64,000 bases of DNA from Chloroflexota bacterium (lineage in GTDB: Bacteria > Chloroflexota > Dehalococcoidia > GIF9 > JBFMDU01). The position numbers and the translations under genes were made by a program. The notes beneath the pieces are model-generated. The model worked only from the letters and a program-made list of their open reading frames with translations, ran no database searches and had not been told where the DNA came from. Positions 5,216 through 54,816 of the stretch are shown piece by piece; the first letter of the stretch is position 1, and each line of letters starts with the position of its first letter. The DNA is taken from positions 64,811 through 128,810 of the forward strand of contig JBFMDU010000016.1 in assembly GCA_040753815.1 (NCBI GenBank), given 5' to 3'.

Positions 5216-5312
5216 GGGAGCGCCTGGGTCCCGGTGGGCTTCGCGGACTTCAAATCCGTCGGGAGGCATTTCTGATGTCTCCGGTGGGTTCGACTCCCAT
5301 GCGCTCCCGCCA
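5216..5312 (+). tRNA. selC: tRNA-Sec (anticodon UCA)
   Basis: Hand-folded. 8-bp acceptor stem (GGGAGCGC/GCGCTCCC). 6-bp D stem with a 4-nt loop. Anticodon stem GCGGA/TCCGT with loop CTTCAAA (anticodon TCA). Long 8-bp variable arm (GGAGGCAT/ATGTCTCC). 5-bp T stem with a TTCGACT loop. Discriminator G and encoded CCA. This is the 8/5 architecture of bacterial tRNA-Sec. Confidence 0.9.
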
Positions 5313-5357: not shown

Positions 5358-5467
5358 TGATGCTCTCAAAGTCACCGCCCGGTGACGGGGACTGCTCAGC
5401 CAGGGGATTGCTACGGTCAGGCAGATGCGTTATATTGGTGGCTTAAATTACTCGTGTGAGAGAACAG

Positions 5468-7149: not shown

Positions 7150-7392
7150 ATGAGGGCTTATATCCATAAATTGGGAAACAGCCTCGCCCTGCGCATCCCA
7201 AAATCCTTCGCTGGTGAAATAGGACTTCAGCGAGAATCGCCTGTTGAAGTCTCGCTAGCGGATGGGAAACTGGTTATCACACCAGTAGCCAGACCAGAGT
7301 TTTCCCTTAAGCAACTGCTGGCTAAGGTCACCAGAGAAAACCTGCACCATGAGGTTGATACCGGCCTCGCCATAGGTAGCGAAACATGGTAA
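7150..7392 (+). CDS. mazE: AbrB/MazE/SpoVT family antitoxin (no intact cognate toxin downstream)
   Basis: 80 aa. KLGNSLALRIPKSFAGEIGL and VEVSLADGKLVITPV form the swapped-hairpin AbrB/MazE motif. Confidence 0.75.
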   Translation: MRAYIHKLGNSLALRIPKSFAGEIGLQRESPVEVSLADGKLVITPVARPEFSLKQLLAKVTRENLHHEVDTGLAIGSETW

Positions 7393-7609
7393 ATCCCCGG
7401 ATTTATCATCCTCAATTTGCCACCCGAACTAAGACTACTTATTCAAGGTCATAATACTTTCGGGTTTTCCTGTGTCAGGAGCAATCTTATCAGACCAGGT
7501 TAAAAGCTTGGGCTAGCGTGCTCAGAAAGGAAGAGTTGATATGTACTTTGCCGGCCGAAACGATCTCGGAGACGCTCCAGAAGCTGGCCACGTTGTTCTC
7601 GTAAGTTTA

Positions 7610-7676
7610 GCGGACCCTAAATCTGTCGGGGGCATTTCTGATGTCTCCAGTGGGCTCGATTCTCATGCGCTCCCGC
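7610..7676 (+). repeat. Decayed direct repeat of the 3' two-thirds of tRNA-Sec (putative att remnant)
   Basis: Aligns with tRNA-Sec positions 5244-5311, from the anticodon stem to the 3' acceptor. About 8 substitutions and one 1-nt gap over ~68 nt. The anticodon TCA is changed to CTA. The 5' third of the tRNA is absent. Confidence 0.7.
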
Positions 7677-7704
7677 TATCGGCGTGCTTGAAATCCTGAT
7701 TACA

Positions 7705-8439
7705 TCAACAGTCTTTGATAGCTTCCTTTGCACCCTCATAGAATCCATATATAAACGCACCAAGTCGAAAGAGGACTTCGCCACATCTGGGACTACTAGG
7801 GTCATAGCCAAGTCGTTCTGCTACTTTAGCAGCTAGTAATTTGACGGCGATGCAATCACCCCGCTTCATATCCACCATGAGTCGATTAGCCGCTCGGGCA
7901 ATACACTCAGCGTGTTCCTCATCATACTCTGTCAAACAAGTTGAATTAATGCCGGATTTCTTTACCCAGTCTTCGAATATCCCTGACCGCATATAGTTTG
8001 TGAAGGCTACTGATGCCCTTCCAGCCCGCCCGTCTTGCTGGTGACCATCCTTCGATACAACAGTGGATTGTGCCAGGATCCGATTGTATTCGTACCCGAT
8101 AACCCAAATTTCAAACCGTCCAGTTTCTCGCAGGTACCGATGCGTAAAAACAGTCTGCTGTATTGGAGCATCGCCCTGTTGGAACTTTAACATCCAGGCA
8201 AGCCCGAACAATTCAACGCGTACTGCTGTCATTTCTTCTTCAAACTTAGCTTGGCCTATTTTCTCGAATGATGGGTCAGCTTCTACCAGGGACTTGTAAT
8301 AAGGCTCTAGAATGATTTGGCCCACATTCTCATGTCCAAGTGACTGGGAAACCGGATTCGGACTAAATAGGTAGTCGTCGTAGTAGTGGCGACAGAATTC
8401 TTCAACACTAACCTTCGGTTTGCGATCAAATAAGCCCAT
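7705..8439 (-). CDS. Hypothetical protein (low-GC insert)
   Basis: 244 aa from the ATG preceded by a GAGGAGG RBS (MGLFDRKPK...). No family recognisable by eye. Markedly more AT-rich than the flanks. Confidence 0.55.
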   Translation of the reverse strand: MGLFDRKPKVSVEEFCRHYYDDYLFSPNPVSQSLGHENVGQIILEPYYKSLVEADPSFEKIGQAKFEEEMTAVRVELFGLAWMLKFQQGDAPIQQTVFTHRYLRETGRFEIWVIGYEYNRILAQSTVVSKDGHQQDGRAGRASVAFTNYMRSGIFEDWVKKSGINSTCLTEYDEEHAECIARAANRLMVDMKRGDCIAVKLLAAKVAERLGYDPSSPRCGEVLFRLGAFIYGFYEGAKEAIKDC

Positions 8440-8575
8440 ACTGATGTACCTCCTCAACCCAGAATACTTTATTCAAGAGCAAGGCTCAAGAATACTACGT
8501 TCATCGTAATTAATTCGGCTAGTTAGCCGAATTACCCAGCCATTAACAAAACAATATCCAACCACAGTTCCAACG

Positions 8576-9340
8576 TTACATTGTCTGAGGGTTGCACACT
8601 TCGAAATTTATTAAAGGGATCAGTATTATGCCCCTTTCTTCTGCTTTCTTTTTAGCTATATCAATCAGTGATAGCTGGCGTGGTCTCCTAAGAGCGGAGG
8701 AAATGTCAAACGAGAAATCCATCAAGACATACTTCAGTGGAGCGGGTGTACCACTAAGTTGCTTTTCCGCTTCTTCCAAAGTCTTAAGAACCTTACTAAG
8801 TAGCGGGTTCTTGGCAGGATCGTCATCGAGAAATCGTGTGTTGACTTCTCGTGCTTCAGTCTTAACACAGCATCTCCTGATATATTTTCTGAAATCATTT
8901 GATGTATGAATGCTTTTGCATTCCATCGCCGCAATCAGATTACCAGCATGCCCTCGTGCTATCAGGTCGGGTGTTGGCTGGTCGGTTGTTTGATTGAAGC
9001 TGATTACGGCTTGCTTATGTTTCTCACTCAACCAACCCCAACCAAGAATCTCAACGAGGGCATCCAAGAACTTATCATTGTATTCATTCTTAAACGAATC
9101 AGCGTTCTCGGGTATTATCATAGTGAATCGACGAATTAGCCATTCCCGATCGGCGACCGGCATATCAGTCACTATATTATCCAAGCGGGTCATTATTGAG
9201 GAAATAACCGGATGCGAGATACTAGTCTTTGCCTTGAATATCCAAGCATTTACGCCACCGATTTGCTTAGCCCTTGTCTCAAAACCAGAGGTAATCTGAT
9301 CTAGATTGAAATACGTCATCGTAAGTTCATTATCAAGCAC
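8576..9340 (-). CDS. Hypothetical protein with candidate PD-(D/E)xK nuclease motif (low-GC insert)
   Basis: 254 aa. TPDLIARGHAGNLIAAMECKSIH fits PD-x(n)-E-x-K spacing. Start is ambiguous (GTG 9340 or ATG 9319). AT-rich. Confidence 0.45.
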   Translation of the reverse strand: MLDNELTMTYFNLDQITSGFETRAKQIGGVNAWIFKAKTSISHPVISSIMTRLDNIVTDMPVADREWLIRRFTMIIPENADSFKNEYNDKFLDALVEILGWGWLSEKHKQAVISFNQTTDQPTPDLIARGHAGNLIAAMECKSIHTSNDFRKYIRRCCVKTEAREVNTRFLDDDPAKNPLLSKVLKTLEEAEKQLSGTPAPLKYVLMDFSFDISSALRRPRQLSLIDIAKKKAEERGIILIPLINFEVCNPQTM

Positions 9341-9477
9341 CGTATGAACATTCTACTAAAGACGCATGTCATACAATATCGGGACTTACGGTCATGGTTA
9401 ATAATCGCCTCAATTAACCCTTTACAACCCAACCTTACAATTTCCTCCACTGAGACATAAAGGTCTACGATCTATCC

Positions 9478-11331
9478 CTACCGCCCCAACACCCTCTCAT
9501 CCCCTACCCGCTTTGTCACCTTTTTCTCGTCGAGGTATTCCAAGAAGGCCTGGGCGTACTTGCGGCTGGTGGCGAACATGTCGCGGACTTCGGCCAGGGT
9601 GATTTTACCCTTGCTCCTGAGGTGCGCGGTGACCTTCTGCACCATCTCGTCATAGGCCGCGGCGGAAAAGACCACGCCCTCGGCTACCCTGACCACCTTG
9701 CGCTCCTCGATAAGCAGGTTCAGGAGGTCGCCTTCGGGGATAAGCTCGCCCGGTGGCGCGTAGGGCTTCTCTTTCAGCGCCTCGAGGAAGGCATCAACCT
9801 TCTTTTGCTGTTCCGGAGTCAGCTTAACCCGGTGCTCCGGCAGGCGCACCGATAGGCCAAGCTCCACCAACCATCCCTCAGTAGATAACCGTGAGATAAT
9901 ATCGTTGGTAAAGACGCCGGTCTTGAGGCGGCTGGTCAACTCCGCTTTAGGCATACCGGGCCGGGCCGGGAAACGCTTGTGGTACTCGCCCACTACCGCC
10001 ACTGCATTATCCGCCAGCCTCTGCCAGCCAGTCCCAGTATAAAGCTGGCGCCGCTCACCGGAACCGATAACCACTACCTTGCCGTCTTTGACCAGCGAGT
10101 CCAGCGCCGCCTGCGCTTCGGCCTCCGGCATGGTCAACTGTTTCAGGAAGGCGGCTAGCTCGACCGGCTGTTTCGACTCAAGCCGGGCCAGGATAACACC
10201 TTCCGGCGAGCCTTCCGTCCGCTTTTCCAGCCCTTCAATGACCCCGGCGCGAAAGCGCTTGAGACGCTTCGAACGGGCGCTGACCACCTCGCCGCCGCCA
10301 ACGGTCTCCATCGGGGTGCGGATGATAAAACGGTCGCCGTCAATCACCGCTACCGGCGATTCAAGGACCATCTGCGCCCATGACTCCTCGCCCGGCTTAA
10401 GCTCGTCCTTATCAAGCAGGCGCACCTTGCCCATCGCCTCGGCGGTGCCGGTGTGGACACTGACCTCGGCATTGTGCTTGAGCGGCGATTTGACATACGG
10501 CAGGAGCTTCAACCGGGCACTGAACATATTGGTCGGGACCAGCCAGCCCGGCCTGGTCAGGACATCGCCGCGCTTCAACTGCCCGGTCTCAACGCCCACG
10601 ATATTGGCGGCGACACGGCTCCCGGGCAGGGCTTTTTCCACCGCCGAGCGGTGGGTCTGCAGGCCGCGGAGGCGGCTCTTAATCCCGGCCGGGACTATCT
10701 CCACCTCCATGCCGACCGAGAGCGCGCCGTCAATCAGCGTGCCGGTGACCACTGTGCCGGCGCCGGCGATGGTGAAAACACGGTCGATAGGAAGACGGGG
10801 GCGGCCGAGGTCACGCCTCGGCTCGGTGGTCTTAAGAACGGCGTCAATGGTCGAAAGAAGCTCGGGAATGCCCTCACCGGTCACGGCGGAGACCGCCAGG
10901 ACCGGCGACCCTTTTAAGACAGTACCGGCAAGAAGCTCGGCAACTTCCATGCTGACCAGGGTGACCATATCGGCATCGACCAGGTCTTTCTTGGTGATGA
11001 CGGCGATGCCGCGCCGGACGCCGATGAGGTCGAGGATAGCCAGGTGCTCCCGGGTCTGCGGCATGATGCCCTCGTTGGCGGCGACGATAAGCAGGGCCAG
11101 GTCAATGCCGCCGACTCCGGCCAGCATATTCTTGATAAAACGTTCGTGGCCGGGGACATCGACGATGCCAACCTCGCGCCCGCCGGGGAGCTTGAGCCAG
11201 GCGAAGCCGAGGTCGATGGTCATGCCGCGCTCTTTCTCCTCGCGGAGGCGGTCGGGGTCGATGCCGGTCAGGGCGCGGATGAGCGCCGATTTACCGTGGT
11301 CGATGTGGCCGGCGGTGCCAAGGACATACAA
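9478..11331 (-). CDS. selB: Selenocysteine-specific translation elongation factor SelB
   Basis: 617 aa. N-terminal GTPase motifs AGHIDHGKS, DVPGHERF and TKKD. Long C-terminal winged-helix extension. TTG start. Confidence 0.95.
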   Translation of the reverse strand: MYVLGTAGHIDHGKSALIRALTGIDPDRLREEKERGMTIDLGFAWLKLPGGREVGIVDVPGHERFIKNMLAGVGGIDLALLIVAANEGIMPQTREHLAILDLIGVRRGIAVITKKDLVDADMVTLVSMEVAELLAGTVLKGSPVLAVSAVTGEGIPELLSTIDAVLKTTEPRRDLGRPRLPIDRVFTIAGAGTVVTGTLIDGALSVGMEVEIVPAGIKSRLRGLQTHRSAVEKALPGSRVAANIVGVETGQLKRGDVLTRPGWLVPTNMFSARLKLLPYVKSPLKHNAEVSVHTGTAEAMGKVRLLDKDELKPGEESWAQMVLESPVAVIDGDRFIIRTPMETVGGGEVVSARSKRLKRFRAGVIEGLEKRTEGSPEGVILARLESKQPVELAAFLKQLTMPEAEAQAALDSLVKDGKVVVIGSGERRQLYTGTGWQRLADNAVAVVGEYHKRFPARPGMPKAELTSRLKTGVFTNDIISRLSTEGWLVELGLSVRLPEHRVKLTPEQQKKVDAFLEALKEKPYAPPGELIPEGDLLNLLIEERKVVRVAEGVVFSAAAYDEMVQKVTAHLRSKGKITLAEVRDMFATSRKYAQAFLEYLDEKKVTKRVGDERVLGR

Positions 11332-14865: not shown

Positions 14866-16788
14866 CTATCCCGGGAAGACCTTCTTCGGCCAGTCACTGC
14901 CGCGTCTGGGTGGCATGGGAGGAGGTGGCGGCTCCGGAGACTCAGATGATTCATCCGCAGGGAGCGGCGACTTCTTCGATTTCTGCCCATTCTGCTCGTC
15001 GGCCTCTTTTACCGCACCACGCAGAGCATCAATGGACGCATCAAGCGTTTCGTCATCGGACGCAGGCACGGCCTGAGCAGACCGTTTCCTGGAAGAAGAC
15101 GCCCTTGGCGGCGCTACCGGCTTGTAGCCGGCCAGTGGCTCGCCCGGTGCCGGCCGGACCAGGTCGTCTGCGGCTTTGTTAGCGGCGCGCGATGTTTGTT
15201 CCTCGCGATTCACGTCCTCATGAGAGGCACGGCTGACCGGCTGCGAGGCTTCCTTTACGGCCTCAACCGCACTTTCCGAGGCCGCTTTAGCGGTACGCCC
15301 GATTTCCTCAGCCTTGAGCACGTACTGTTTTAACGACTCAACCGCACGGTCAACCGCCTCTTTAGCGGCGCGATTGGACGCCTCGGCTGCGGTCTTTGCT
15401 TCCTGTGCCGCTTTTTCAACGGCGGCTACTGCTTCACGGGACGCCTCCTGGGAAAGCCGGGCAGCTTCACGACTGCTCTGCTCGGCATCATCGGCGATTT
15501 CACGCACGGCGCGTATCGCGGCATCAGCCGCTTCTTTAGCTGATTTCCCGGTCAATTCCACCCGGCGCACCGCCTCCTGCGAAGCACGTGTCGCGGCCTC
15601 AGCGGCCTCCTTTATCGCCTTGCCTATCACATCAGCCTGTTCCCGGGCTGCGGCTGAGGCCGCCTGTGTGCTTTCCCGGGCGGTCATTTCCACCTGCCGG
15701 AGCCTGCCCAGGGCCTCATCAACCGCCCCACGGGACTTGTCCTCGACTTCACGTGCGGCACGGACAGCGTCTTCAACAGCGTTCTTGGCCGTTGTAACCG
15801 CCGCTATGGCAGATTCCTTTGCCGACTTCACCATAGTCTGGACCCGGGCAATAGCCTCCTGACAGGCTTCCTCCGGTGCCTGGATGGCCTCCTTGACGGA
15901 GTCAACCGCGTTCCGGGCTGTCTCCTTGACCGCGGCTGTGGACTCTTCCGTTGACGCCCTGGCGGCGCTCGCCGCTTCTTCTACCCGCTCAATAGCGTCT
16001 TTAGAGATATCGCTGACCTTTTCCACCACGTCTTTAAGCGAGTGGACCGCCTCAGTAGATGTCTCCGTGGCCTTCCGGCTCGCTTCCTCCACCTTAAAGA
16101 TAGCGTCTTCAGAAGTCCTTGAGGCTGAATCGGCGGCATCCTTCAACTGGTCAAGCGCCGACTCTGCGGTGTTCTCAACAGCCTTTACTTTCTCTTCGAC
16201 CTGCCCGACTGCCGCCTTGAAAGCGGCGTCAAGCTCCTGCGCCTGCTTCCTCATTTCGCGGTCAAGTTCCTCAATTCTTGCGACAGCTTCACGGGAGGCC
16301 TGGGTCATGTCCTGGGCGACCTCACGAGCCGTCCGGGCAGCCTCATCCGCCGCTTCCTTGGCTTCAGCGGCGGCGGCCTTGGCCTGCTCTATGGCTTGCC
16401 GGGAAGCATCCTGGGCTGACCTGGCGGCCTCCTTAGCGGCGGCGACTGCCTCATTGGTCGCTTCATGGCTCAAGGCCGCAGCTTCTTTAACCGCGTTCTG
16501 AAGTTCACGGATAGCTTCGTCAGCCTTCTCTCCCGCGGTCTTGGCCATCTCCAGCGCCTTGCGCGCCGTCTCGGTGGTCGACCTATCCAGAGCTTCGGCC
16601 CGGCTCATCGCTTTCTGCGCCGACTTGGTCGCCTCAAGGGCCGCTGACTTGGTATCCCTGGCAATCTGTTCGAGACGGCTGACAACATCCTCGGCCTTCT
16701 GCGCCGCCATTACCGCATCGGATGCGGCAGATTCAGCTTTTTCCTCAGCCTGTAGTGCGTCTCTCTCGAAACTTCTTCTGGTAGTCAT
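14866..16788 (-). CDS. Ala/Glu-rich repetitive helical protein with Pro-rich C-terminal tail
   Basis: 640 aa. About 520 aa of degenerate A/E/K/S/T-rich helical repeats (e.g. EAVxxAxEAAxxA) are followed by a basic/Pro-rich tail ending PPPPMPPRRGSDWPKKVFPG. No signal peptide or TM segment. Confidence 0.6.
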   Translation of the reverse strand: MTTRRSFERDALQAEEKAESAASDAVMAAQKAEDVVSRLEQIARDTKSAALEATKSAQKAMSRAEALDRSTTETARKALEMAKTAGEKADEAIRELQNAVKEAAALSHEATNEAVAAAKEAARSAQDASRQAIEQAKAAAAEAKEAADEAARTAREVAQDMTQASREAVARIEELDREMRKQAQELDAAFKAAVGQVEEKVKAVENTAESALDQLKDAADSASRTSEDAIFKVEEASRKATETSTEAVHSLKDVVEKVSDISKDAIERVEEAASAARASTEESTAAVKETARNAVDSVKEAIQAPEEACQEAIARVQTMVKSAKESAIAAVTTAKNAVEDAVRAAREVEDKSRGAVDEALGRLRQVEMTARESTQAASAAAREQADVIGKAIKEAAEAATRASQEAVRRVELTGKSAKEAADAAIRAVREIADDAEQSSREAARLSQEASREAVAAVEKAAQEAKTAAEASNRAAKEAVDRAVESLKQYVLKAEEIGRTAKAASESAVEAVKEASQPVSRASHEDVNREEQTSRAANKAADDLVRPAPGEPLAGYKPVAPPRASSSRKRSAQAVPASDDETLDASIDALRGAVKEADEQNGQKSKKSPLPADESSESPEPPPPPMPPRRGSDWPKKVFPG

Positions 16789-17425: not shown

Positions 17426-20347
17426 ATGAGCAGACGGCTCAAGATCACATTCATATTTGTCTGCGTCGCGCTTCTGGTGGGCCTTGTCCAATGCATACCA
17501 GCCGGCGCACCACCGCCATCCACATTACCTGTCACTACCCCCTCAAATACAGCCACACCAGCACCGTCAACCAGCCAGGGGCCAGCCCCCACACCAAACG
17601 AGATCCGCTTCGAAAGCTATGGCTGGGCCGAGTACGGCGACTGGTGGGCCGAGGCTGCCGTCAGCCCTGCCGTCTGGCGACCCGGCATTCCAATCAAGGT
17701 CACATCCACCCTGAGGGTCCCGGACAGATTCTTTGAAGCCTTCTATACCGCTGGCCAGAAAGCCGATGGCTTTGTACTTCTGGTCACCGCAGAACGGACC
17801 TTCGATGCCGAGGGTCATTTCCGACAGGCCAGCGATGAGCGCATGTCAACGCTGGTGACACCGACCGGCCTGGCCATCGAGGGCGGCATCCAGGGTGCTG
17901 TTACCAACCGCTTCGGCTATGCGTTCAAGACTCCGGTTGACCAGCTCGTCACCATTCCCTTCAACCCACAGCAGACCACCAAGGGCGGCCGCGAGGTCGT
18001 CTTCAATGTCCAGACAACCCTGCCACAGGACCTGCCGCCGGGCATCTACCGGGTCCGCCTCGATTACGGCTTCACCCAGGGCAAGAGCTTCAAAAGTCTT
18101 AGCTGTGAAGGCTTCGCCCGGAGACCCTTTTTCAAAGGCCGGCCAACCGAATCACATTTATTCTCGCCGCCAATTCCGGCCAGCGGCAAAAACATCAGCG
18201 GCAAAGCGGTCGATGCTTCCAAGATACAGCCGCGTATCCCATGGGTAATCCTGGGCGACTACAACTCAAATGGCTACAGGGGCGTTGTCGCTGAAGAGGA
18301 CAAACCCTATTTTGTCCTGTCTAACCGCAACATCATCCAGGACGACGTCATTCTACCGCTCTATAAAGACGATAATAAGACGAAGCTGTCCTATAACCTC
18401 GAGCCTCAGCTCCCGACCGATATTATCGAGACCCGCTCCAACATTCCCTGGGACTATACCAGGGGGGAACTATCTATCGAGGTCACCGGCCCCGATGGAA
18501 AGACAGTCAACCTGGGAAAGTTTCCATTCGTTGGCAAGCGCGGCATGTGGCCAACTACCCGCAAGGCTGAATTCACGGCATGGAAGCCACCGGCTTACGG
18601 CCAGTACACGGTCAAGGCCACCGGCTGGATTGCCGATATCTGGGGCAACCGCTATGAGGGCGGCGGCACCTACAAGTTCTGGATTGCCAAGCGCATGACT
18701 CTGGCCACCGCTACCTTCCAGGGCCAGCCATACCCGGTCGGCAACCGCTACGGCCGTGATATCGGATTCGCTCCGGCAGTACCGGCTGATGTCACTATTA
18801 CCGCCACTCTGTACCCCTACTCCGACCCGAAGCAGGCGAAGACAGTCATCTCCACCGGCAAAGCATCGGCCTCCGGTATTTTTGGTGCGGCGCAAGGGAT
18901 GAAACCGCTTCCTTTTGATGCACCCGGCGAGTACATCGGCCATGTCCTGGCTACTTACACCGACAAAGACAGCCACCTCTGGGTATCCACCATGCGCCAT
19001 GCCAGCGTTGTTTACCCCGAGGACTCACCCATCGAGGCCCACGGCAAGAAAATCTGGCTCAACGGTAAGTTCTATGAGCGCGTTGAGACCCACCGTGAGG
19101 GCTGGGCCGACCGCACCAGGGATGTCCAGTTCCTCGACCACATCAACTTCCCCTATAACCAGGGCGATGTCCTGCTCATCGCCAGCGAACAGGAAGGCGC
19201 CAACAAGATTGAGCCAGTGCTCAACTGGGAATACAAAGGGCAGAAGGTGCCGGATGATGCCCGAATGCGCTCCCACGGCGTCGGCGCTTCAAGTACCAGG
19301 TTGAGGACTTCAAACGGTCTCTCGCCGCACATGTTCCCGGAATACATTGTCGACTGGGAGTATTACTATGCAGGCGCGCCGCGCTCCGGTTTCATGGGGC
19401 GGTTCATCGTTGGCGATGACGGCATCCGCGCCCCTTACTGGCCAACCAGCCCAAACAGCTTCGGCGGCCAGTACAACGCATCTTATAACGGCGACCTGCC
19501 CGGTGATATCTACCGTCTTCTCGGCGGCGTGGTCGTAAGAAAACAGGGCCAGACACCGATGTATGCCGGCTATATGGCCAGCGCCTTCATTTTACCCAAG
19601 GACACGAATAACAATGCGGTCGTCGCCCCGGGTGCTCAAGACATTATCGGCTCAGACGGCTCAAAAGCCCGCTTTTTCATCGTTAGCACCCGCCCCGGCA
19701 TGATGTACGAGGTTGGAACAGTTCTCAGTGTAGTTGCCCAGATAGACCCAATGCTCCCGATCAACGCCAAGGCGACGATGAAATACCCGGACGGCCGCGT
19801 TCTGACCACAGAGGGCACGGCTGATAAGATGGGTTATGTGGTCGGCAAAGACCGCTTCACTCTGGATGTTCCAGGGGTCTATCAGTTCAGCATCGAGGGT
19901 GAGTGGAACGGCTACAAAGGCTACATGCCCGGCCTGCCGCGCGATGGCGGCTATATCTACGTGGTCGAAAAAGAGCGTCCGGCTGGCGTGCCCGACCTCA
20001 AGCTGAACCTGCCACTTACTTCCTACTTCTCACCGGACCGGCCTTTCACCATCTCCGGCACCAGCACCGACAAGGAGGTCTACTACGCCGCGGTTATCCC
20101 CGGCGCTGTCATCGACCAGGGCATAGCTCAGGTAAAGAACGGCAAGTTCGAATACGTCTTCGACCCGGTTTCTATCAGCCAGAAATTCCCGACCTACGAC
20201 ATTATCAATTTAACTACCGGCAAGCCTGAAATCCGGGATGTCGTCCACCTGACCTTCTTCTCTAAAGAGACCGGCCCCGGCGGCGCCACCGGGCATTCCA
20301 TGGTGCGGCTAATTATGCGCGGCACCCAGGTGCTGTACACGAAGTAG
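17426..20347 (+). CDS. Large secreted/cell-surface protein of unknown function
   Basis: 973 aa. N-terminal signal-like hydrophobic segment (ITFIFVCVALLVGLVQC), then a Pro/Thr/Ser-rich linker. The rest has beta-rich composition with no recognisable catalytic motif. Confidence 0.65.
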   Translation: MSRRLKITFIFVCVALLVGLVQCIPAGAPPPSTLPVTTPSNTATPAPSTSQGPAPTPNEIRFESYGWAEYGDWWAEAAVSPAVWRPGIPIKVTSTLRVPDRFFEAFYTAGQKADGFVLLVTAERTFDAEGHFRQASDERMSTLVTPTGLAIEGGIQGAVTNRFGYAFKTPVDQLVTIPFNPQQTTKGGREVVFNVQTTLPQDLPPGIYRVRLDYGFTQGKSFKSLSCEGFARRPFFKGRPTESHLFSPPIPASGKNISGKAVDASKIQPRIPWVILGDYNSNGYRGVVAEEDKPYFVLSNRNIIQDDVILPLYKDDNKTKLSYNLEPQLPTDIIETRSNIPWDYTRGELSIEVTGPDGKTVNLGKFPFVGKRGMWPTTRKAEFTAWKPPAYGQYTVKATGWIADIWGNRYEGGGTYKFWIAKRMTLATATFQGQPYPVGNRYGRDIGFAPAVPADVTITATLYPYSDPKQAKTVISTGKASASGIFGAAQGMKPLPFDAPGEYIGHVLATYTDKDSHLWVSTMRHASVVYPEDSPIEAHGKKIWLNGKFYERVETHREGWADRTRDVQFLDHINFPYNQGDVLLIASEQEGANKIEPVLNWEYKGQKVPDDARMRSHGVGASSTRLRTSNGLSPHMFPEYIVDWEYYYAGAPRSGFMGRFIVGDDGIRAPYWPTSPNSFGGQYNASYNGDLPGDIYRLLGGVVVRKQGQTPMYAGYMASAFILPKDTNNNAVVAPGAQDIIGSDGSKARFFIVSTRPGMMYEVGTVLSVVAQIDPMLPINAKATMKYPDGRVLTTEGTADKMGYVVGKDRFTLDVPGVYQFSIEGEWNGYKGYMPGLPRDGGYIYVVEKERPAGVPDLKLNLPLTSYFSPDRPFTISGTSTDKEVYYAAVIPGAVIDQGIAQVKNGKFEYVFDPVSISQKFPTYDIINLTTGKPEIRDVVHLTFFSKETGPGGATGHSMVRLIMRGTQVLYTK

Positions 20348-41717: not shown

Positions 41718-42515
41718 ATGGCCAATCCGAGACGCCACGTTACGAGACAGAACGCTGACTTCTTCATCGGAGTTGATTTGTCCGATTTGGGGAGAGAAGC
41801 CCCGCGCCCATGTACTGTAGCTATTCTCGACAAGAACCTTCGTTGCCACTTTAACGAATGGGCGCGATTCGAAGATCCGGCTTCAATCATACCTCCCGAA
41901 GTTCTTAGCCAAGACTGGGTTCTAGCAATTGACGGACCACAAGGGCTTGCAGAGCACCGAGGGGCCCGGATGCGAATCTGCGAAAGAAAACTTGGGGCCC
42001 AAGCCAAATCGCCATACGTGATACGCAAAGGCCAGTTCATGGCTAATTTCGTGAGTGGCTCTATAAGACTCTTCCAATCACTATACATCGCAGGCATTTT
42101 TCACCTATTTGGTCTTCCGGATGTGGGATATTCACAAGCTAATCTCATCGAAGTCTACCCGGCCAGAATCTGGTGCGAGCTAATGAGTAGCGTAGATACC
42201 ATGCCTAAAAAGACGACCTTAAATGGTCGAAGACAACGTTACCGTCTTTTGATCGACCGTAGCCTAGAGTTTCCAAGCTTCTCAATGAAGAAACCACCAT
42301 CCCACGACGAGCTTGACGCAGCAGTTGCTGCATACTCGGCATATCTTTTCAAGCATAGAAAGACACGATACATTGGCACACAGCCACGCTATGACGAACG
42401 AAGTCGACACTTCAGAGGCGGCTTTATAGTGCTCCCTGCAATAGTGCCCCATAAATACTACAATACCAGCAACTCCCTGATCAGAGCACACTCGAATCCG
42501 GAAACAAAAGCCTGA
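41718..42515 (+). CDS. DUF429 family protein (predicted RNase H-like fold)
   Basis: 265 aa. IGVDLS, LAIDGPQGL, RICERKLG, LIEVYPARIW, KKTTLNGRRQRYRLL and HDELDAAVAAYSA are colinear with DUF429. Lower GC than the flanks. Confidence 0.55.
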   Translation: MANPRRHVTRQNADFFIGVDLSDLGREAPRPCTVAILDKNLRCHFNEWARFEDPASIIPPEVLSQDWVLAIDGPQGLAEHRGARMRICERKLGAQAKSPYVIRKGQFMANFVSGSIRLFQSLYIAGIFHLFGLPDVGYSQANLIEVYPARIWCELMSSVDTMPKKTTLNGRRQRYRLLIDRSLEFPSFSMKKPPSHDELDAAVAAYSAYLFKHRKTRYIGTQPRYDERSRHFRGGFIVLPAIVPHKYYNTSNSLIRAHSNPETKA

Positions 42516-42622
42516 TTGGGCCGCTTCACACAATGTTTCCGCTTGCCATATCTTGACATATTAGTTCCTATACGCTATCATTTAGATAGTTAATAGCTAG
42601 TTAAGTGATAGGAGAGTCGGAC

Positions 42623-43156
42623 ATGAATGCTAGTGTAATCTATGCTAGAGTTCCGAGAGAATTGAAGAGCGAACTCCTCGGCTTCGCAAAGATGGCAGGT
42701 AAACCACAGTCGGAGGCAATATCGGTTCTGATTCAACGCGGTCTCCAATCTGAACGGGTTCAGAAGGAGCTTGCCGATATACGCACGAAGCTTGAACAAG
42801 CTAACAGAGACCGCGAAACACTACGTGGGGAGAAACAGCAACTAGAATCAGAACTTACGATTGCTCGGCAATCCATGGAGAGTGCACACCGCGCCAAGGG
42901 ACACTTGGAGAGAATACTAAACACTGTCGTAGGCAAATGTTCAGTACCCGGGTGTGGAATGCCAATCAACCTCTATGGATTTGCCTATCAGCAATGTCCT
43001 AGAGGCCACTCAAAGAGTATCGACCTTCTTGAAGCTTACAAGAAGATGCCGGGGGTCGGCGAGGCTTTGGTAGCTGGTCTTGCCGTCTTCGGTGGGATCG
43101 CACTCGCGTCAGAACTACTCGGCCCGAGCAGAGCCGTGGACACACCCAAGAGATAG
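42623..43156 (+). CDS. Ribbon-helix-helix / coiled-coil / zinc-ribbon / C-terminal TM protein
   Basis: 177 aa from the ATG after AGGAGAG. The N-terminal VIYARVPRELKSELLGFAKMAGKPQSEAISVLIQRGL is CopG/Arc-like. About 60 aa of heptad-like coiled coil follow, then CSVPGCG...CPRGH, then a hydrophobic segment ALVAGLAVFGGIALA. Confidence 0.5.
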   Translation: MNASVIYARVPRELKSELLGFAKMAGKPQSEAISVLIQRGLQSERVQKELADIRTKLEQANRDRETLRGEKQQLESELTIARQSMESAHRAKGHLERILNTVVGKCSVPGCGMPINLYGFAYQQCPRGHSKSIDLLEAYKKMPGVGEALVAGLAVFGGIALASELLGPSRAVDTPKR

Positions 43157-43200
43157 GCAAGTCACAAGCCCGAGACAACACGGAAGGAAGTAAGACAACG

Positions 43201-43578
43201 ATGGATAATGCGAAAGATATTCCATACGACGAGATGTTCGAGACCCGCATACGCCAAGTTGCCGAGAGTCTGAGAGCCGCAATAGATGGCCTTAGCATGC
43301 TGCTCAGTGGGCTCGTGGATATTATAGAGTCACCCGGGGTCACCGAATACCTGAGTGATGAAGTCAAGGAAGCACTAGCCAGCACCGACGTTGGAGAATT
43401 GAAGGACAGAGTGACAAGACTACAAGTTGCTTCAGAAGTCCTGTCATGGTTACAATCCGACGAAGCGCTAACGCTTTTGTCTACTGTTCAGAATGATAAA
43501 CTGGCAACTGGCTACCAAAAGATCGGCGTAGGGATTTATAAACTACAGAAATTTCTCGGTGGCCGAAGTACACTGTAG
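43201..43578 (+). CDS. Hypothetical small acidic helical protein
   Basis: 125-aa ORF on the same strand as the two preceding low-GC genes. No recognisable motif. Confidence 0.4.
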   Translation: MDNAKDIPYDEMFETRIRQVAESLRAAIDGLSMLLSGLVDIIESPGVTEYLSDEVKEALASTDVGELKDRVTRLQVASEVLSWLQSDEALTLLSTVQNDKLATGYQKIGVGIYKLQKFLGGRSTL

Positions 43579-43634
43579 ACTACTTCTCGATCACCATCTT
43601 CCACATCAAATCCCTCTAGATAAGAAAGGACCAA

Positions 43635-45995
43635 GTGGACCAGCACAGTCTTGAGATGCTCGAGTTCCCCAGGGTCAGGGAGATACTGGCCTCGCTGACC
43701 TCGTTTTCGGCCAGCCGGGAGCTGGCGCTCGGGCTGATGCCGTCGTCTGACCTGGAAGTAATAACAGGCCTGCTAAAGCATTCAAGAGAAGCACGGCGCG
43801 TCCTTGCCCTGAAGCCGGACTTCTCAATCGGATATGCTTCCGATGTCCGCGAAGCCGCTCGGATGGCGTCTAAAGGCAGTAGCCTAGAACCACTTGTACT
43901 ACTGGACATCGGCAGGACTCTGGCCTCGGCACGGGTAGCCCGATCCGGCATCGAAAAGCTGAAAGCCGAAGTCCCAACTCTCTGGAGCATAGCCAGTAAA
44001 ATCACTCCCATACCTGACCTCGAAAGCGAAATCAACCGGTGCATCTCGCCCGATGGCGAGGTCATGGACAGCGCCTCGGAAAAATTAGCTAACCTGCGGC
44101 GCCGTCTGCGCGCCGCCCGCCAGGAACTAGTGGAACGTCTTGAAGCCATCACCCGCTCACGTCGCGGCCAGCGGTTACTGCAGGAACCCATCGTTACCGA
44201 GCGCGATGGCCGCTTCGTCATCCCGGTCAAATCAGAACTGCGCACCCAGGTCAAGGGCATCGTCCACGACGTTTCCAACACCGGTGCCACAGTTTTCATC
44301 GAACCCTGGGCAACAGTCGATCTGGGCAACGAACTTCGCGAGCTAATCGCCCAGGAAAAGTATGAGGTCGAGCGTATAATGGCCGAGCTCAGCGCCATGG
44401 TCGGCGAGAATGAACGTGCTGTCAGCACCAGCGTCACGTACCTGGCTGAACTCGACCTCGCCCTGGCCAAAGCCCGCTATGCCCAGCGACTTAAAGCAAC
44501 CGAAGCCAGCATCACTTTCCCTCAGCCCGAAAAGCCCGAAAGCAAATGGAACGTCCTCCGTCTGGTCAACGCCCGCCACCCGCTCCTCAAGGGCAAGCCG
44601 GTACCGATGTCAGTAGAAATCGGAAAGGACTTCTCAACACTCGTCATCACCGGCCCCAACACCGGCGGCAAAACAGTCGCTCTCAAGACCATCGGCCTGC
44701 TCACCATGATGACTCAGGCCGGTCTGCCAATACCTGCCGCCGAGGAAAGCTCAATACCGGTCTTCGATAGTGTCTTCGCCGATATCGGTGATGAGCAGAG
44801 CATCGAGCGCACCCTTTCCACTTTTAGCTGGCACATCGGTAATATCAACCGCATCATCGGCGAATCAACCGCCTCCAGCCTGGTATTGCTCGACGAGCTC
44901 GGCACCAGCACCGACCCTCTAGAGGGGGTCGCTCTGGCCCAGGCCATCCTGCTCCATTTCCTGTCACGCGGCACTATTGTCGTAGCCACCACCCACTTCA
45001 GCGACCTCAAGGTCTTCGCCCATACCACGCAGGGCGTCGAGAATGCCTCTTTGGCCTTTGATCCGGTGACCCTCTCGCCCACCTATTACCTGACGGTCGG
45101 CACTCCCGGTGGAAGCAACGCGCTGGCGATTGCCGCCAGGCTCGGCCTACCGCGAGAAATCATCGAAAATGCCCGCGGGGTCATGGCCAGAGGCCCTCAG
45201 CAGGTCGAAGTCATGCTTACCGACCTGGCCAGCGAAAAAGAAAAGGCCGAAAAGCTGACCAAATCGCTGACCGACCAGAGAGCTGCGGCCGAGACGATGC
45301 GCCGCCGTCTCCAGGAAGACCTGGCCCGCATCCACGAAGAAGAGCGCACCCTGCTCCGGGAAACACGCGACGGCCTGCTCCAGGAAGCCGCTGACCTCCA
45401 GCGCCAGCTCCGCGAGGCCGAAGCCGAACTAAAAAAGAGCCGTTCCAAGGATAGCGTCGAGCACGCCCGGAAGTCCCTGGCCGAACTTCACCAGCGGCTT
45501 GAGGGAGAGGCATGGCGGACTAAAGCTGGAAAGACAGCACCCGCCGAGGCTCTGTCCGTCGGCGATAAAGTGCGTCTTATCAACACCAACCTCGATGGGA
45601 CTATCGTACGCGTACTGAATGAGGGACGTCAGGTAGAGGTCCAGGCGGGACAGACACGAATCACCCTGGGTATTGACGGGGTGGAGAAGATACCGCCGCT
45701 AGCCGCCAAACTGCCGGATTCAGTCTCGGTCAAGCCGCGGTTCACATCACGCGCCATGTCCTTCGAGCTTGACCTGCGCGGCAAAAGGGCCGATGATGTT
45801 TACCCGGCGCTCGACGGCTATCTCAACGACGCTTTCATGGCTAATCTCAGCCAGGTACGCATCATCCACGGCTTTGCTACCGGCACCGTCCGGAGTGTCG
45901 TCAGGGAAATTCTGGGCCAGCACCCGCTGGTCAAGTCCTTCCGTCCCGGCACACGCGAGGAAGGCGGCGACGGCGTAACCATGGTAAGCTTGTAA
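43635..45995 (+). CDS. mutS2: Endonuclease MutS2 (MutS domain + C-terminal Smr domain; RqcU-type)
   Basis: 786 aa. Walker A ITGPNTGGKTVALKT, DELGTSTDP, a long coiled-coil and C-terminal Smr (LDLRGKRADD...IIHGFATG). Confidence 0.95.
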   Translation: MDQHSLEMLEFPRVREILASLTSFSASRELALGLMPSSDLEVITGLLKHSREARRVLALKPDFSIGYASDVREAARMASKGSSLEPLVLLDIGRTLASARVARSGIEKLKAEVPTLWSIASKITPIPDLESEINRCISPDGEVMDSASEKLANLRRRLRAARQELVERLEAITRSRRGQRLLQEPIVTERDGRFVIPVKSELRTQVKGIVHDVSNTGATVFIEPWATVDLGNELRELIAQEKYEVERIMAELSAMVGENERAVSTSVTYLAELDLALAKARYAQRLKATEASITFPQPEKPESKWNVLRLVNARHPLLKGKPVPMSVEIGKDFSTLVITGPNTGGKTVALKTIGLLTMMTQAGLPIPAAEESSIPVFDSVFADIGDEQSIERTLSTFSWHIGNINRIIGESTASSLVLLDELGTSTDPLEGVALAQAILLHFLSRGTIVVATTHFSDLKVFAHTTQGVENASLAFDPVTLSPTYYLTVGTPGGSNALAIAARLGLPREIIENARGVMARGPQQVEVMLTDLASEKEKAEKLTKSLTDQRAAAETMRRRLQEDLARIHEEERTLLRETRDGLLQEAADLQRQLREAEAELKKSRSKDSVEHARKSLAELHQRLEGEAWRTKAGKTAPAEALSVGDKVRLINTNLDGTIVRVLNEGRQVEVQAGQTRITLGIDGVEKIPPLAAKLPDSVSVKPRFTSRAMSFELDLRGKRADDVYPALDGYLNDAFMANLSQVRIIHGFATGTVRSVVREILGQHPLVKSFRPGTREEGGDGVTMVSL

Positions 45996-46015
45996 AGGGA
46001 AGGAGGGCAGTTACC

Positions 46016-46768
46016 TTGCTCTCACTAACGGAGTCCCGGCTCAGGCGGAAACAGGCGCTCGATTGGCTAACCGAACTCGAAAACAGACCAGGTCCGGCGG
46101 CATCCGTTTATATATCTCCTGGCACACTTCTGCCCGAGGTCGAGAAGCTAACGGCCAGCTCCGCTGTCGCTGGTGAACTGCCAGCCGGCCTTGCCGAAAT
46201 TATCGCCGCATCCCCTACCGGTGGAGTCGTCTTCCGCGGCGAGCACACCGGTGACCTGCTTGTCCCGCCATTCCCGGTCACGGACAAACACATCTTCCTC
46301 AATCTGTACTCGGGACCGCTTCGGGAGGTGCTTTCCCGCGACCTGACCGTGGCAGTTATACTGCTCAGGCTCGGGATGTATGCCATCGGCCTCTTCCGGG
46401 GAGAACGCCTGCTGGCCAGCCGGGTCGGCACCGGCAACATCCACTCCCGGCACCGCCAGGGAGGCTCTTCTGCACGCCGCTTCGAGCGCCACCGCGACAA
46501 GCAAATTGAAGAGTTCTTTGCCCGCGTCTGCCTTCAGGTACGCGACCGGCTCGACCAGTACATGAACGAGATCGACTGGTTAATTTATGGTGGCACGGAG
46601 GAAACGGTCCTTGAGTTCCGTAAACAATGCCAGTATCTCGCCCGGCTCGACGACCACGTCATCGACCGTCTGCTCAACGTCCGGGAGCCAAAGCAAGCCA
46701 GTCTCGAAGCCACCATAGAAGATATCTGGTCAAGCCGGGTCATCCACTGGGAGGAGACACGGCTCTAG
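46016..46768 (+). CDS. Bacterial eRF1/Pelota/Vms1(VLRF1)-superfamily protein, GGQ position reads GGS
   Basis: 250 aa. SRHRQGGSSARRFERHRDKQIEEFFARVCLQVRDRL...IDWLIYGGTEETVLEF aligns by eye with the eRF1 central domain [30 protein letters not shown]...VAGLVLAGSADFKTEL. Starts 20 nt after the mutS2 stop. Confidence 0.6.
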   Translation: MLSLTESRLRRKQALDWLTELENRPGPAASVYISPGTLLPEVEKLTASSAVAGELPAGLAEIIAASPTGGVVFRGEHTGDLLVPPFPVTDKHIFLNLYSGPLREVLSRDLTVAVILLRLGMYAIGLFRGERLLASRVGTGNIHSRHRQGGSSARRFERHRDKQIEEFFARVCLQVRDRLDQYMNEIDWLIYGGTEETVLEFRKQCQYLARLDDHVIDRLLNVREPKQASLEATIEDIWSSRVIHWEETRL

Positions 46769-47126
46769 CTGCATATCCGAAGCCTATGGTAAACACCGGG
46801 TAAACTAGGTAGTTGAGACCGATATCAGTCATGTAATCAAGAAGCGGCATTTGCATCGGCCCCCACGTAAACATCAGCAGGTCCATAAGCAGGCTGATGG
46901 CAAGCCAGAGCACTCCAAGGAGAACACCTTCACGCACCGTGAACAATCTTGCCTTACGGAAATAAAATATCGCCAGGGGCGCCACGCAGAGGGCCAGCAC
47001 CACCGTCATGATGGCTTCAAAGAACGCCAGGTGTGAAGCCCTCAACGGAAACACCAGAAACGAAATCAGGAACGGGACGAACCAAAGCAAGAAACCAAGA
47101 CCAAGCGCCAGCCGGTACCTTTTCAT
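46740..47126 (-). CDS. Small integral membrane protein (4 TM)
   Basis: 128 aa with four hydrophobic segments. 4-nt overlap with the upstream gene. Confidence 0.55.
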   Translation of the reverse strand: MKRYRLALGLGFLLWFVPFLISFLVFPLRASHLAFFEAIMTVVLALCVAPLAIFYFRKARLFTVREGVLLGVLWLAISLLMDLLMFTWGPMQMPLLDYMTDIGLNYLVYPVFTIGFGYAARAVSPPSG

Positions 47127-53352: not shown

Positions 53353-54816
53353 ATGATGTCCTCAGAAGCATGGCCTCAGATTAACATAGGGGCAAGGCGT
53401 GAGATAATAATGAATAGTTCAGCGTTTGAGCAATTCTTGGAGCAACTAGCCAGATACCCATCAATGTGGGATTGTTTAGAGCTGAAAGCTGTTGGAGCCA
53501 CCAAGGGGGAATCTCTATTCTTGTTGGCCTTGTCATGCACTCTTTCCGTAGCGCTCCATCCAAGCCGGGAGGTACTTCTTGAGACACCAGAACTAATTAT
53601 GGTCAAGGAGATTAAGCCCTTGACTGAATTACGGAGCGTCCTAAATGGCTTGACTAGCGGGAGTGTGCTCATATCGGATAGACCGTTTGTGGCTGATGGC
53701 TTCACCGCATTTGAGTGCAGAATGTGGGGTGGTGGCGGTCAAGGATGGGTTGACACTACATACCCGTATGTTTTGCTTTACTCAACTGGGAAATCTGTGA
53801 GAGAACTTGTTGACGACTCTGCGATATATCGTAGTCTTGAGCAGTGGGGTTATCGCTACTTATGGGATGTCAGTCAAGAGAAGGTTGGCTTCCCAGTGGG
53901 CGGAGCCCATGTGAGCCACATCCGTTTCATAGCACCCATATATCTGGAAGCGAATGCAGCGTTTGTCGACAACCACCTGCGAATTGTACTGAAATGCTCG
54001 CCTTCTTTGAAGACGGAAGACCTGTCAGCGGGATACGAAATCACGCTGAACTATCTTGGGAATAGGCAAGTACAGCGTGGCAAGCTGGATTTCCTAGACG
54101 CTTCACGTCTTGAGGATGCTGTTAGCTTTACCCTAGTGAAAGAATTAGACCTTTTGCCTCAGGCAGAGTCGGTGTTTATTTGGCTCTTCCATAGCACCCA
54201 AAAAGACCCTCTATATGCGCTACGTGTCCTAAAGCCCACTACAGCAAAGACTAACCCGGTTTGGGGCGCTATGAATGTGGTGCTATCAAAACGCGAAGGA
54301 GGCCAGATACTCTATGCAGAAGAATTATTACGGAGGTCGCTTGGCCTTACTGCCAAGGGCACAGATTCAGGAAGGTTCGAGAGTGCAGTGCACAATCTGT
54401 TTGGTTGTCTAGGCTACAGTTGCATTTTTACCGGGCGGGAGTGGGGGACTGAGGGGATTGATACTTTGGCTTTTGGGCCTGGGCTGGATGATAAGGTACT
54501 GGCCGTAAGCGTCACAACTTCGAATAATATTGCTGAGAAAATCCGGACGATGCTGTTACAGTTAGAAAACCTCAAGCGCGGCATTGGGAACATCGCTGTA
54601 ATTCCTGTCATATGCGCCTCAATTACCTCTGATTGTGTGCTGCATAGCGACTGGGTAAATCTCAAAGCCCATAACATAAGCCTGTTGCTGTTACCACAGC
54701 TTCAACAAATACTGGATGATATTCTCAGGTTACCATTGCCGGAAGTGAGGAGGAAATGGGAATCAATGCTGGGGGACATGGAAACGCTTCACGGTAAACA
54801 TGACGAAGGAGCCTGA
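53353..54816 (+). CDS. Hypothetical protein with C-terminal degenerate Mrr/restriction-endonuclease-like domain
   Basis: 487 aa. The N-terminal ~340 aa are unrecognisable. The C-terminal FESAVHNLFGCLGYSCIFTGREWGTEGIDTLAF...VLAVSVTTSNN follows the Mrr_cat pattern (FE..v..ll..lGy...D.GiD...QxK), but the (E/Q)xK position reads SVT. Low GC. Confidence 0.5.
   Translation: MMSSEAWPQINIGARREIIMNSSAFEQFLEQLARYPSMWDCLELKAVGATKGESLFLLALSCTLSVALHPSREVLLETPELIMVKEIKPLTELRSVLNGLTSGSVLISDRPFVADGFTAFECRMWGGGGQGWVDTTYPYVLLYSTGKSVRELVDDSAIYRSLEQWGYRYLWDVSQEKVGFPVGGAHVSHIRFIAPIYLEANAAFVDNHLRIVLKCSPSLKTEDLSAGYEITLNYLGNRQVQRGKLDFLDASRLEDAVSFTLVKELDLLPQAESVFIWLFHSTQKDPLYALRVLKPTTAKTNPVWGAMNVVLSKREGGQILYAEELLRRSLGLTAKGTDSGRFESAVHNLFGCLGYSCIFTGREWGTEGIDTLAFGPGLDDKVLAVSVTTSNNIAEKIRTMLLQLENLKRGIGNIAVIPVICASITSDCVLHSDWVNLKAHNISLLLLPQLQQILDDILRLPLPEVRRKWESMLGDMETLHGKHDEGA

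Follow-up and report, generated by a model that had tools for sequence, protein, structure and literature searches.

A conserved pair of mutS2 and a Vms1-like gene of the eRF1 superfamily in Chloroflexota: a candidate ribosome-rescue operon

What does a protein of the eRF1 superfamily do directly behind a ribosome-collision ATPase in a bacterial genome? The question is raised by a stretch of 64,000 nt (the window) from a Chloroflexota bacterium of the Dehalococcoidia (GenBank assembly GCA_040753815.1, contig JBFMDU010000016.1, positions 64,811 to 128,810 of the forward strand), an uncultured organism, in which mutS2 is followed, on the same strand, by a gene of the acVLRF1 family. In bacterial ribosome-associated quality control (RQC) a sensor and splitter (MutS2) and taggers (RqcH with RqcP/YlmH) are known, but no dedicated release factor. 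Indeed, bacteria have no known factor that is dedicated to RQC termination, and in Bacillus subtilis release is thought to be done by the housekeeping Pth (PMC11317155). As set out below, the pairing is conserved well beyond this genome, and it could be that the second gene supplies the missing step.

The gene pair and its two proteins

An earlier, sequence-only reading of the locus had placed a 250-aa open reading frame (ORF) 20 nt behind mutS2 on the same strand, and both ORFs are indeed found there. The pair, its domains and the loop on which much of the argument turns are as follows.

43635..45995, + strand: mutS2, RqcU-type ribosome-collision ATPase (786 aa, GTG start; TIGR01069 802.8 bits against an equivalog cut-off of 400; end-to-end match to B. 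subtilis MutS2)
44640..45185, + strand: ABC-type ATPase domain of MutS2 (MutS_V, residues 336-517; PF00488, 3.3e-33), with Walker A PNTGGKT and Walker B LVLLDELG
45558..45674, + strand: KOW-like/MSSS SH3 domain of MutS2 (residues 642-680; PF20297, 1.7e-06, 28 bits against a gathering threshold (GA) of 26.8), aligning to the B. subtilis KOW region
45768..45992, + strand: Smr domain of MutS2 (PF01713, 7e-22), with DLR (not DxH) and HGFATG motifs
45996..46015, + strand: intergenic spacer of 20 nt between mutS2 and acVLRF1, with the Shine-Dalgarno sequence GGAAGGAGGG at 45998-46007
46016..46768, + strand: acVLRF1 gene, Vms1-like, eRF1 superfamily (250 aa, TTG start; PF18859 89.6 bits; predicted local distance difference test (pLDDT) 90.3)
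46016..46300, + strand: N-terminal domain of acVLRF1 (residues 1 to about 95), what is left of the eRF1/aRF1 N domain after deletion of the NIKS-bearing segment, with an invariant PPFP linker at its end
46337..46756, + strand: eRF1 M-type (RNase H-fold) domain of acVLRF1 (about residues 108-247; Pfam acVLRF1 111-242, eRF1_2 112-236)
46442..46504, + strand: loop and following helix, HSRHRQGGSSARRFERHRDKQ, with GGSS at 46460-46471, Q148 at 46457-46459 and A153 (the glutamine (Gln) position of the family) at 46472-46474

The Shine-Dalgarno sequence is strong and lies about 9 nt 5' of the TTG start, at which the N-termini of 28 homologues align, and a terminator-site search of the 20-nt gap found no terminator-like hairpin between the genes. 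Judging from the short gap, the ribosome-binding site and the lack of a terminator-like site, mutS2 and acVLRF1 are probably co-transcribed. The unit ends with the 250-aa ORF, since the next gene, a 128-aa ORF (46740-47126, minus strand), is convergent and its 3' end overlaps that of acVLRF1 by 29 nt (46740-46768). This convergent ORF encodes a hydrophobic, membrane-protein-like sequence without a Pfam match.

The first gene was correctly recognised as an Smr-containing, RqcU-type mutS2. Besides clearing the equivalog model, its product carries the MutS_V, MSSS/KOW-like and Smr domains of Pfam, and residues 1-786 align to 1-784 of the B. subtilis MutS2 that was solved on collided ribosomes (8qpp, 7qv3; E 2e-148). 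Both Walker motifs read as intact, and the Smr domain reads ELDLRGKR, which is the DLR type, as in B. subtilis, and not the nuclease-type DxH of SmrB; of 98 partner MutS2 proteins 91 have DLR, and the Walker motifs are likewise kept in the partners. DLR-type Smr domains are non-nucleolytic, and B. subtilis MutS2 binds disomes via its KOW and Smr domains and splits them by ATP hydrolysis, leaving the mRNA uncut (PMC10897456). In the Smr HGxG motif of the window protein (HGFATG at 45864-45881) the second glycine is replaced by alanine, which is also the case in 10 of 106 aligned partner MutS2 proteins, the exact HGFAT variant occurring in only one. The HGxG motif contributes to ribosome binding in B. 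subtilis.

The eRF1 central-domain pattern that had been read from the letters of the second gene is borne out by profile and structure searches alike. The ORF belongs to Pfam acVLRF1 (PF18859; 2.5e-25, 89.6 bits versus a GA of 27.1, with residues 111-242 covering positions 2-129 of the 130 in the profile), with weaker matches to baeRF_family10 and eRF1_2. The family, defined computationally by Burroughs and Aravind in 2019 (PMC6514570), had thus already been named and described, which the sequence-only reading did not know; its members carry the NCBI name 'Vms1/Ankzf1 family peptidyl-tRNA hydrolase'. The NCBIfam model for acVLRF1 (NF041024) gives 91.8 bits, under its cut-off of 125, and seems to be geared to a different branch of the family. 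A profile of 28 homologues matches solved structures of aRF1 (3agk, 2.8e-15; 4af1, 1.3e-13) and also of eRF1 (HMMER). The AlphaFold2 model (pLDDT 90.3, predicted template modelling score 0.85, only loop 141-160 being low) finds aRF1/eRF1 as its best Foldseek matches (2e-10; 4af1), followed by Balon on 70S ribosomes (8v9j and 8rdv, E 4e-7 to 8e-7), Pelota/Dom34 and Vms1 (6r84, 1.3e-4), while matches confined to the M domain have root-mean-square deviations of 2.9 (8hku_ARF1) and 3.6 (4crm_X). Because the family spans 186 clusters (50% identity) at E<=1e-30, the identity of the ORF is far beyond chance.

In architecture the protein is a typical acVLRF-1: an RF-PH (eRF1 M) domain preceded by a short N-terminal region, without a functional stop-codon-binding domain or a Pelota-type C domain. 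Pfam gave no match to eRF1_1, eRF1_3 or Pelota on the 250-aa ORF (the C domain is absent and the protein ends after its M domain), and none to Zn-finger, ankyrin or VIM domains; the aRF1/eRF1 equivalog TIGR03676 reaches only 53.4 bits versus a cut-off of 234.7. HMMER pairs residues 6-82 with residues 9-111 of aRF1 (3agk), the aRF1 'TDNIK' falling in a gap, and since the alignment extends over this whole region, the short N-terminal extension of the 2019 family description looks like the stump of an eRF1 N domain. The SLYIPPG strand is retained, and so is the PP-P linker, with PPfPi aligning to PPEPI of aRF1 and P84-P87 invariant. In other words, acVLRF1 keeps those elements of eRF1 that are directed at the A site and the peptidyl-transferase centre (the loop and the Arg-rich helix), while codon reading and the GTPase/ABCE1-binding domain have been lost.

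Linkage of mutS2 and acVLRF1 across Chloroflexota

Besides a significant eRF1-superfamily match, which is present, the sequence-only reading made its proposal depend on whether the adjacency reaches beyond this one genome, and it does. A genome scan (one genome per species) was used to keep the best 80 of 314 relatives, all of them Chloroflexota/Dehalococcoidia with 40-86% identity, and a locus was counted as an informative negative if at least 2.5 kb of upstream DNA contained no mutS2. In 61 of the 80 loci mutS2 lies directly upstream on the same strand, 8 loci being too short and 11 being informative negatives (i.e. 61 of 72 informative loci). In a metagenome scan whose seeds came from the more distant half of the family, mutS2 lay upstream in every one of the 39 informative loci that belong to the window's subfamily, which brings this subfamily (G1) to 100 of 111 informative loci overall. 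The gaps are mostly 0-200 nt, and in the closest genome record (L001, a Dehalococcoidia metagenome-assembled genome) the pair is present with proteins that are 86% and 80.5% identical to those of the window.

The pair also occurs in the opposite order. In a second, deeper subfamily the VLRF gene precedes mutS2 by 28-140 nt in 7 loci (L100, L105, L112, L119 and L129 from the metagenome scan, L161 and L162 from direct look-ups), in which full-length MutS2 is only 36-41% identical to that of the window; the assignment of this subfamily to Chloroflexota rests on names attached to related proteins. Directly upstream of the reversed pair, and on the same strand, L161 (4600-5943) and L162 (3589-4899) carry a radical-SAM/HHH_3 gene of about 440 aa, which could be a third member of the reverse-order operon.

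Sampling from the side of MutS2 gives a similar picture, as 5 of 6 homologues have acVLRF1 within 440 nt downstream and the sixth (L172) has it 4.3 kb downstream, behind an inserted block. In L172 this block (7272-10919) consists of genes for an Mrr restriction endonuclease, a MazE/PIN toxin-antitoxin, GNAT and PHO4. The MutS2 of L172 is the nearest non-trivial relative of the window's (64% identity), and upstream Inhibitor_I42 (chagasin) genes are common to both loci.

When the flanking ORFs of 81 loci were clustered, only the two genes themselves proved to be conserved (60 and 81 of the 81 loci), the next family being present in at most 8. As no other flanking family is conserved, the linkage is specific rather than a matter of general synteny. 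Conserved rqcH, rqcP, pth or hibernation-factor neighbours were not found in this clustering, and no MutS2-VLRF gene fusion was found among the matches listed in the protein searches. The same-strand adjacency is thus kept across divergent genomes while the flanks change. That it holds in either gene order, with scrambled flanks and MutS2 identities of 36-60%, marks the two genes as a functional pair.

Larger gaps within the pair hold inserted genes. Those of about 620-710 nt hold an IS200-like Y1 transposase, and one gap of 1.5 kb holds a 506-aa insert. In several species the same gene of about 190 aa, encoding an IS200-like/RAYT-type Y1 transposase, sits precisely between the pair (L007 1723-2292, L008 1302-1892, L011 5428-5991, L018 2166-2633 and L045 2545-3135; also L005 and L013), and this intergenic site seems to be hit by insertions repeatedly.

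The region just 5' of mutS2 also stands out. The GC content is 0.50 across 42000-44000 versus about 0.56-0.60 around it, and the two ORFs that precede mutS2 (42605-43156, a coiled-coil protein, and 43201-43578) lack a convincing Pfam match, and none of the related loci has them beside mutS2. The best promoter-like site, TTGACA-17-TATCAT, lies at 42553-42581. The low-GC stretch may be a recent insertion which now supplies the promoter.

The GGSS loop and its variable glutamine

The sequence-only reading held that the GGQ of release factors reads GGS in this protein. HMMER aligns the acVLRF1 loop without gaps to those of aRF1 (KMGGQSQRRYER) and eRF1 (3agk, 4af1, 3e20), placing GGS opposite GGQ, and because the alignment is ungapped the statement is right in the eRF1/aRF1 register. 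It nevertheless has to be re-registered for this family, the motif of VLRF-1 proteins being GGxSQ, with a conserved (putatively catalytic) Gln two residues further on (PMC6514570). In the window protein (QGGSSA) it is this Gln which corresponds to Ala153. Among 150 family representatives, GGxSQ is present in 98 of the 143 readable loops, and in the window's own clade the position is A, S, E or Q.

The loop around it is anything but variable. In 28 homologues G138, G140, H143, R145, H146, G149, G150, S151, S152, R155, F156, R158, R160 and K162 are invariant; the loop length is fixed, with 12 of these residues falling between H143 and K162. The Arg residues that open the post-loop helix, an rRNA-binding feature, are represented by R154 and by the invariant R155, R158, R160 and K162. 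According to Burroughs and Aravind, a conserved loop of fixed length separates active from inactive families (PMC6514570).

The behaviour of the Gln itself is different. Of 198 close homologues, 86 have a Gln only before the GG, 58 only after GGSS, 49 at neither place and 5 at both, with about 17-18 changes of each Gln character on the tree. The typical forms, as seen in the window (46457-46474) and in loci L001-L160, are RQGGSS[A/S/E] and K-KGGSSQ. This alternation may reflect relocation of the residue or merely relaxed constraint. A simple relocation (QGGSS[A/S] versus KGGSSQ) is suggestive only, since a simulation of independent evolution on the tree gave the complementarity a P of ~0.01 and the scarcity of QQ one of ~0.08; as one quarter of the sequences have no Gln at all, it is not relied on here.

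What can safely be concluded from the alignments is that the loop as a whole is strongly constrained, while the Gln side chain is dispensable in this clade; variants with and without it are both linked to mutS2. Given this dispensability, any hydrolysis would be Gln-independent, relying on the loop backbone and other residues. Bacterial release factors whose Gln is mutated to Ala keep substantial hydrolysis, the loop backbone doing much of the work, so that a loop without Gln is not necessarily dead.

A possible role in ribosome rescue

Taking linkage and homology together, it is quite conceivable, if still short of probable, that mutS2 and acVLRF1 form a two-gene ribosome-rescue operon, in which MutS2 splits the ribosome and acVLRF1 releases the nascent chain from within the A site. 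If it works as in B. subtilis, MutS2 would recognise collided ribosomes and split the stalled one, after which acVLRF1 would enter the vacant A site, most likely that of the 50S-peptidyl-tRNA product, and bring its invariant GGSS loop up to the peptidyl-transferase centre. The nascent chain would then be detached from its tRNA, either through hydrolysis of the ester or through a cut at the tRNA 3' end as reported for Vms1/ANKZF1, which would make acVLRF1 the bacterial counterpart of Vms1. Ribosome binding by acVLRF1, its substrate (50S versus 70S) and its catalysis are all predicted from its better-studied relatives. A shade more tentatively, Dehalococcoidia and related Chloroflexota may possess a self-contained MutS2-based RQC module, with a Vms1-like release factor that works without the catalytic Gln.

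Several observations weigh against this proposal. The window protein has no Gln at the eRF1 position (S151) or at the family position (A153), its only candidate being Q148 just before the GG, and 49 of the 198 close homologues lack any Gln flanking GGSS; Vms1, on the other hand, needs its Gln, the Q295L mutant being the form used for structure 6r84. The linkage is not universal either, considering the 11 informative loci of the window's own subfamily that lack an upstream mutS2, a third, SAR202-like subfamily without mutS2 within 6 kb (0 of 14 informative loci, the neighbours being ordinary metabolic genes only) and 3 G2b loci of the family that also have no mutS2 nearby. As the family exists without mutS2 nearby, the function of acVLRF1 cannot depend strictly on MutS2. 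The same follows on a larger scale from the Actinobacteria, where the family is reported as well (PMC6514570): a survey of 15,259 genomes found mutS2 in 35 of the 41 from Chloroflexota and in none of the 3213 from Actinobacteriota (PMC11633108). The linkage (100 of 111 informative loci in G1) is therefore a Chloroflexota feature and the family functions without MutS2 elsewhere, which for the Actinobacteria relies on the published absence of mutS2. Finally, B. subtilis MutS2 splits disomes in vitro without a VLRF partner (PMC10897456), and it is Pth that releases the chain there (PMC11317155).

Part of this evidence would also suit a non-catalytic protein, i.e. an A-site cofactor comparable to Pelota/Dom34 in its action with ABCE1, which aids MutS2 in prying the ribosome apart or marks the ribosome and leaves the peptidyl-tRNA bond uncut. 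An unconserved Gln, missing altogether from 49 of 198 homologues and changing state 17-18 times, is in line with such a role, as are the Foldseek matches to Pelota/Dom34 and the non-catalytic Balon, and the tight operon linkage is explained by a physical partnership no less well than by a sequential pathway. Moreover, MutS-family ATPases are of the ABC type, and ABCE1 requires an eRF1/Pelota-type A-site factor. However, neither the GGSS loop nor its flanks vary in sequence or in length, whereas the loops of the inactive Dom34 and baeRF-1 proteins are poorly conserved and variable in length (PMC6514570); acVLRF1 also lacks the C domain by which Pelota and eRF1 contact ABCE1, B. subtilis MutS2 splits disomes alone (PMC10897456), and some acVLRF1 subfamilies have no adjacent mutS2 with which to cooperate. 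A cofactor role is therefore considered unlikely, albeit a serious candidate. It is distinctly unlikely that acVLRF1 is a stand-alone, codon-independent rescue factor of the 70S ribosome, similar to ArfB and merely co-expressed with MutS2 instead of acting on its products. Prokaryotic VLRF-1 proteins have indeed been proposed to be single-component release factors that are independent of RQC components (Burroughs and Aravind, PMC6514570), SAR202-like and Actinobacteria-type members do occur without mutS2, and codon-reading motifs are absent, but adjacency that is kept in two gene orders, with the flanks otherwise scrambled, points to something closer than loose co-regulation, and the protein shows neither an ArfB-like tail nor any other obvious means of sensing an empty mRNA channel.

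The adjacency could, in principle, be nothing but synteny inherited within one lineage, the two proteins serving unrelated processes (MutS2, for example, suppressing recombination). The linked loci are all from Chloroflexota, 11 loci of the window's subfamily lack the linkage, and the older literature gives MutS2 a role on DNA. Yet the pair is conserved while its flanking genes are not, it is retained at protein identities of 40-60% and in either order, its interruptions are insertions of mobile elements, and both proteins come from families with ribosome-rescue roles, which makes the absence of any functional link very unlikely. Most improbable of all is a Balon-like hibernation or occupancy factor that sits in the A site of idle ribosomes and is linked to mutS2 through shared stress regulation: the Foldseek matches to Balon on the 70S ribosome and the absent Gln would agree with it, but Balon has three domains and uses EF-Tu via the C domain that acVLRF1 lacks, the best Pfam match is acVLRF1 rather than a baeRF family, and there is no linked hibernation-factor gene here, such as baeRF-1 families have (Burroughs and Aravind, PMC6514570). 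A part in anti-phage defence was also considered and set aside, as PADLOC models gave no match for MutS2 or acVLRF1.

The proposed rescue operon resembles several known systems and is identical to none of them. To the acVLRF-1 family as described (PF18859, PMC6514570) the window protein conforms in consisting of the M domain only, in its GG..S loop and Arg-rich helix and in its Chloroflexota origin; it differs in having Ala for the Gln of GGxSQ, in staying below the NF041024 cut-off and in being operonic with mutS2. With Vms1/ANKZF1 it shares the VLRF-1 clade and, if the proposal is right, the job of freeing the chain from the large subunit once an ATPase has split a collided ribosome, but it has no Zn-finger, ankyrin or VIM domain, reads GGSSA instead of GxuQ, matches the Vms1 structure only moderately (6r84) and has a predicted activity. 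Its best sequence and structure matches are aRF1/eRF1, with an ungapped loop and the H-x-x-GG and RF-R-R helix residues in common; unlike these it has GGS, its NIKS/YxCxxxF decoding elements are deleted, it has no C domain, and its length is 250 aa versus ~410-440 aa in the matched structures (373 aa in 3agk).

Pelota/Dom34 with ABCE1 offers the closest formal parallel of an eRF1-superfamily A-site protein without the Gln that is paired with an ABC-type ATPase splitting stalled ribosomes. Here, though, the loop is highly conserved, the Sm-like N domain and the C domain are missing, the Foldseek matches are weaker than those to eRF1, and MutS2, which has nothing but the ABC fold in common with ABCE1, binds collided disomes. 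Balon and the baeRF-1 families are likewise bacterial members of the superfamily without the catalytic Gln, and the window protein has a weaker match to baeRF_family10, but they form another clade, have three domains and are linked to hibernation factors or EF-Tu, not to mutS2. Compared with the RQC of B. subtilis (MutS2/RqcU, RqcH, RqcP/YlmH and Pth), the window MutS2 is orthologous (full length, with DLR Smr, KOW-like domain and Walker motifs); the difference is that B. subtilis leaves release to the housekeeping Pth and its mutS2 has no linked eRF1-like gene, whereas here a candidate factor is found in the operon itself.

Both gene families are known and annotated, and it is their conserved linkage that appears to be new. 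The 2019 family description, in which prokaryotic VLRF-1 proteins stand alone, leaves MutS2 and Smr unmentioned (PMC6514570) and predates the discovery of MutS2's ribosomal role. The view that the pairing had not been described experimentally holds up, in that no description of a VLRF1-MutS2 linkage in bacteria, and no paper linking the two, was found in the searchable literature, which leaves out subscription-only papers.

Elsewhere in the window, a selenocysteine tRNA (5216-5312; ARAGORN, and Rfam RF01852 with 72.5 bits) lies near a SelB elongation-factor gene (9478-11331, minus strand) and a class-V aminotransferase gene (5456-6553), from which it follows that the organism uses selenoproteins. 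Three long ORFs, at 17426-20347 (plus strand, 973 aa), 14866-16788 (minus strand, 640 aa) and 53353-54816 (plus strand, 487 aa), have no significant Pfam domain.

The varying Gln in an otherwise invariant GGSS loop amounts to a natural experiment on whether loops of the release-factor type need the Gln side chain, and it bears on the debate about Vms1 as a hydrolase or a tRNA nuclease. For bacterial RQC, a conserved operon of MutS2 with a member of the Vms1 clade is a concrete and testable candidate for the missing release step, in a major environmental phylum. It also ties bacterial RQC to the eukaryotic pathway, in which splitting is followed by Vms1, and is relevant to the question of how the VLRF-1 clade came to serve in quality control. 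If the proposed role is correct, bacteria would have in acVLRF1 a first factor dedicated to RQC termination, and the splitter-plus-VLRF logic of eukaryotic RQC would be present in a bacterial operon.

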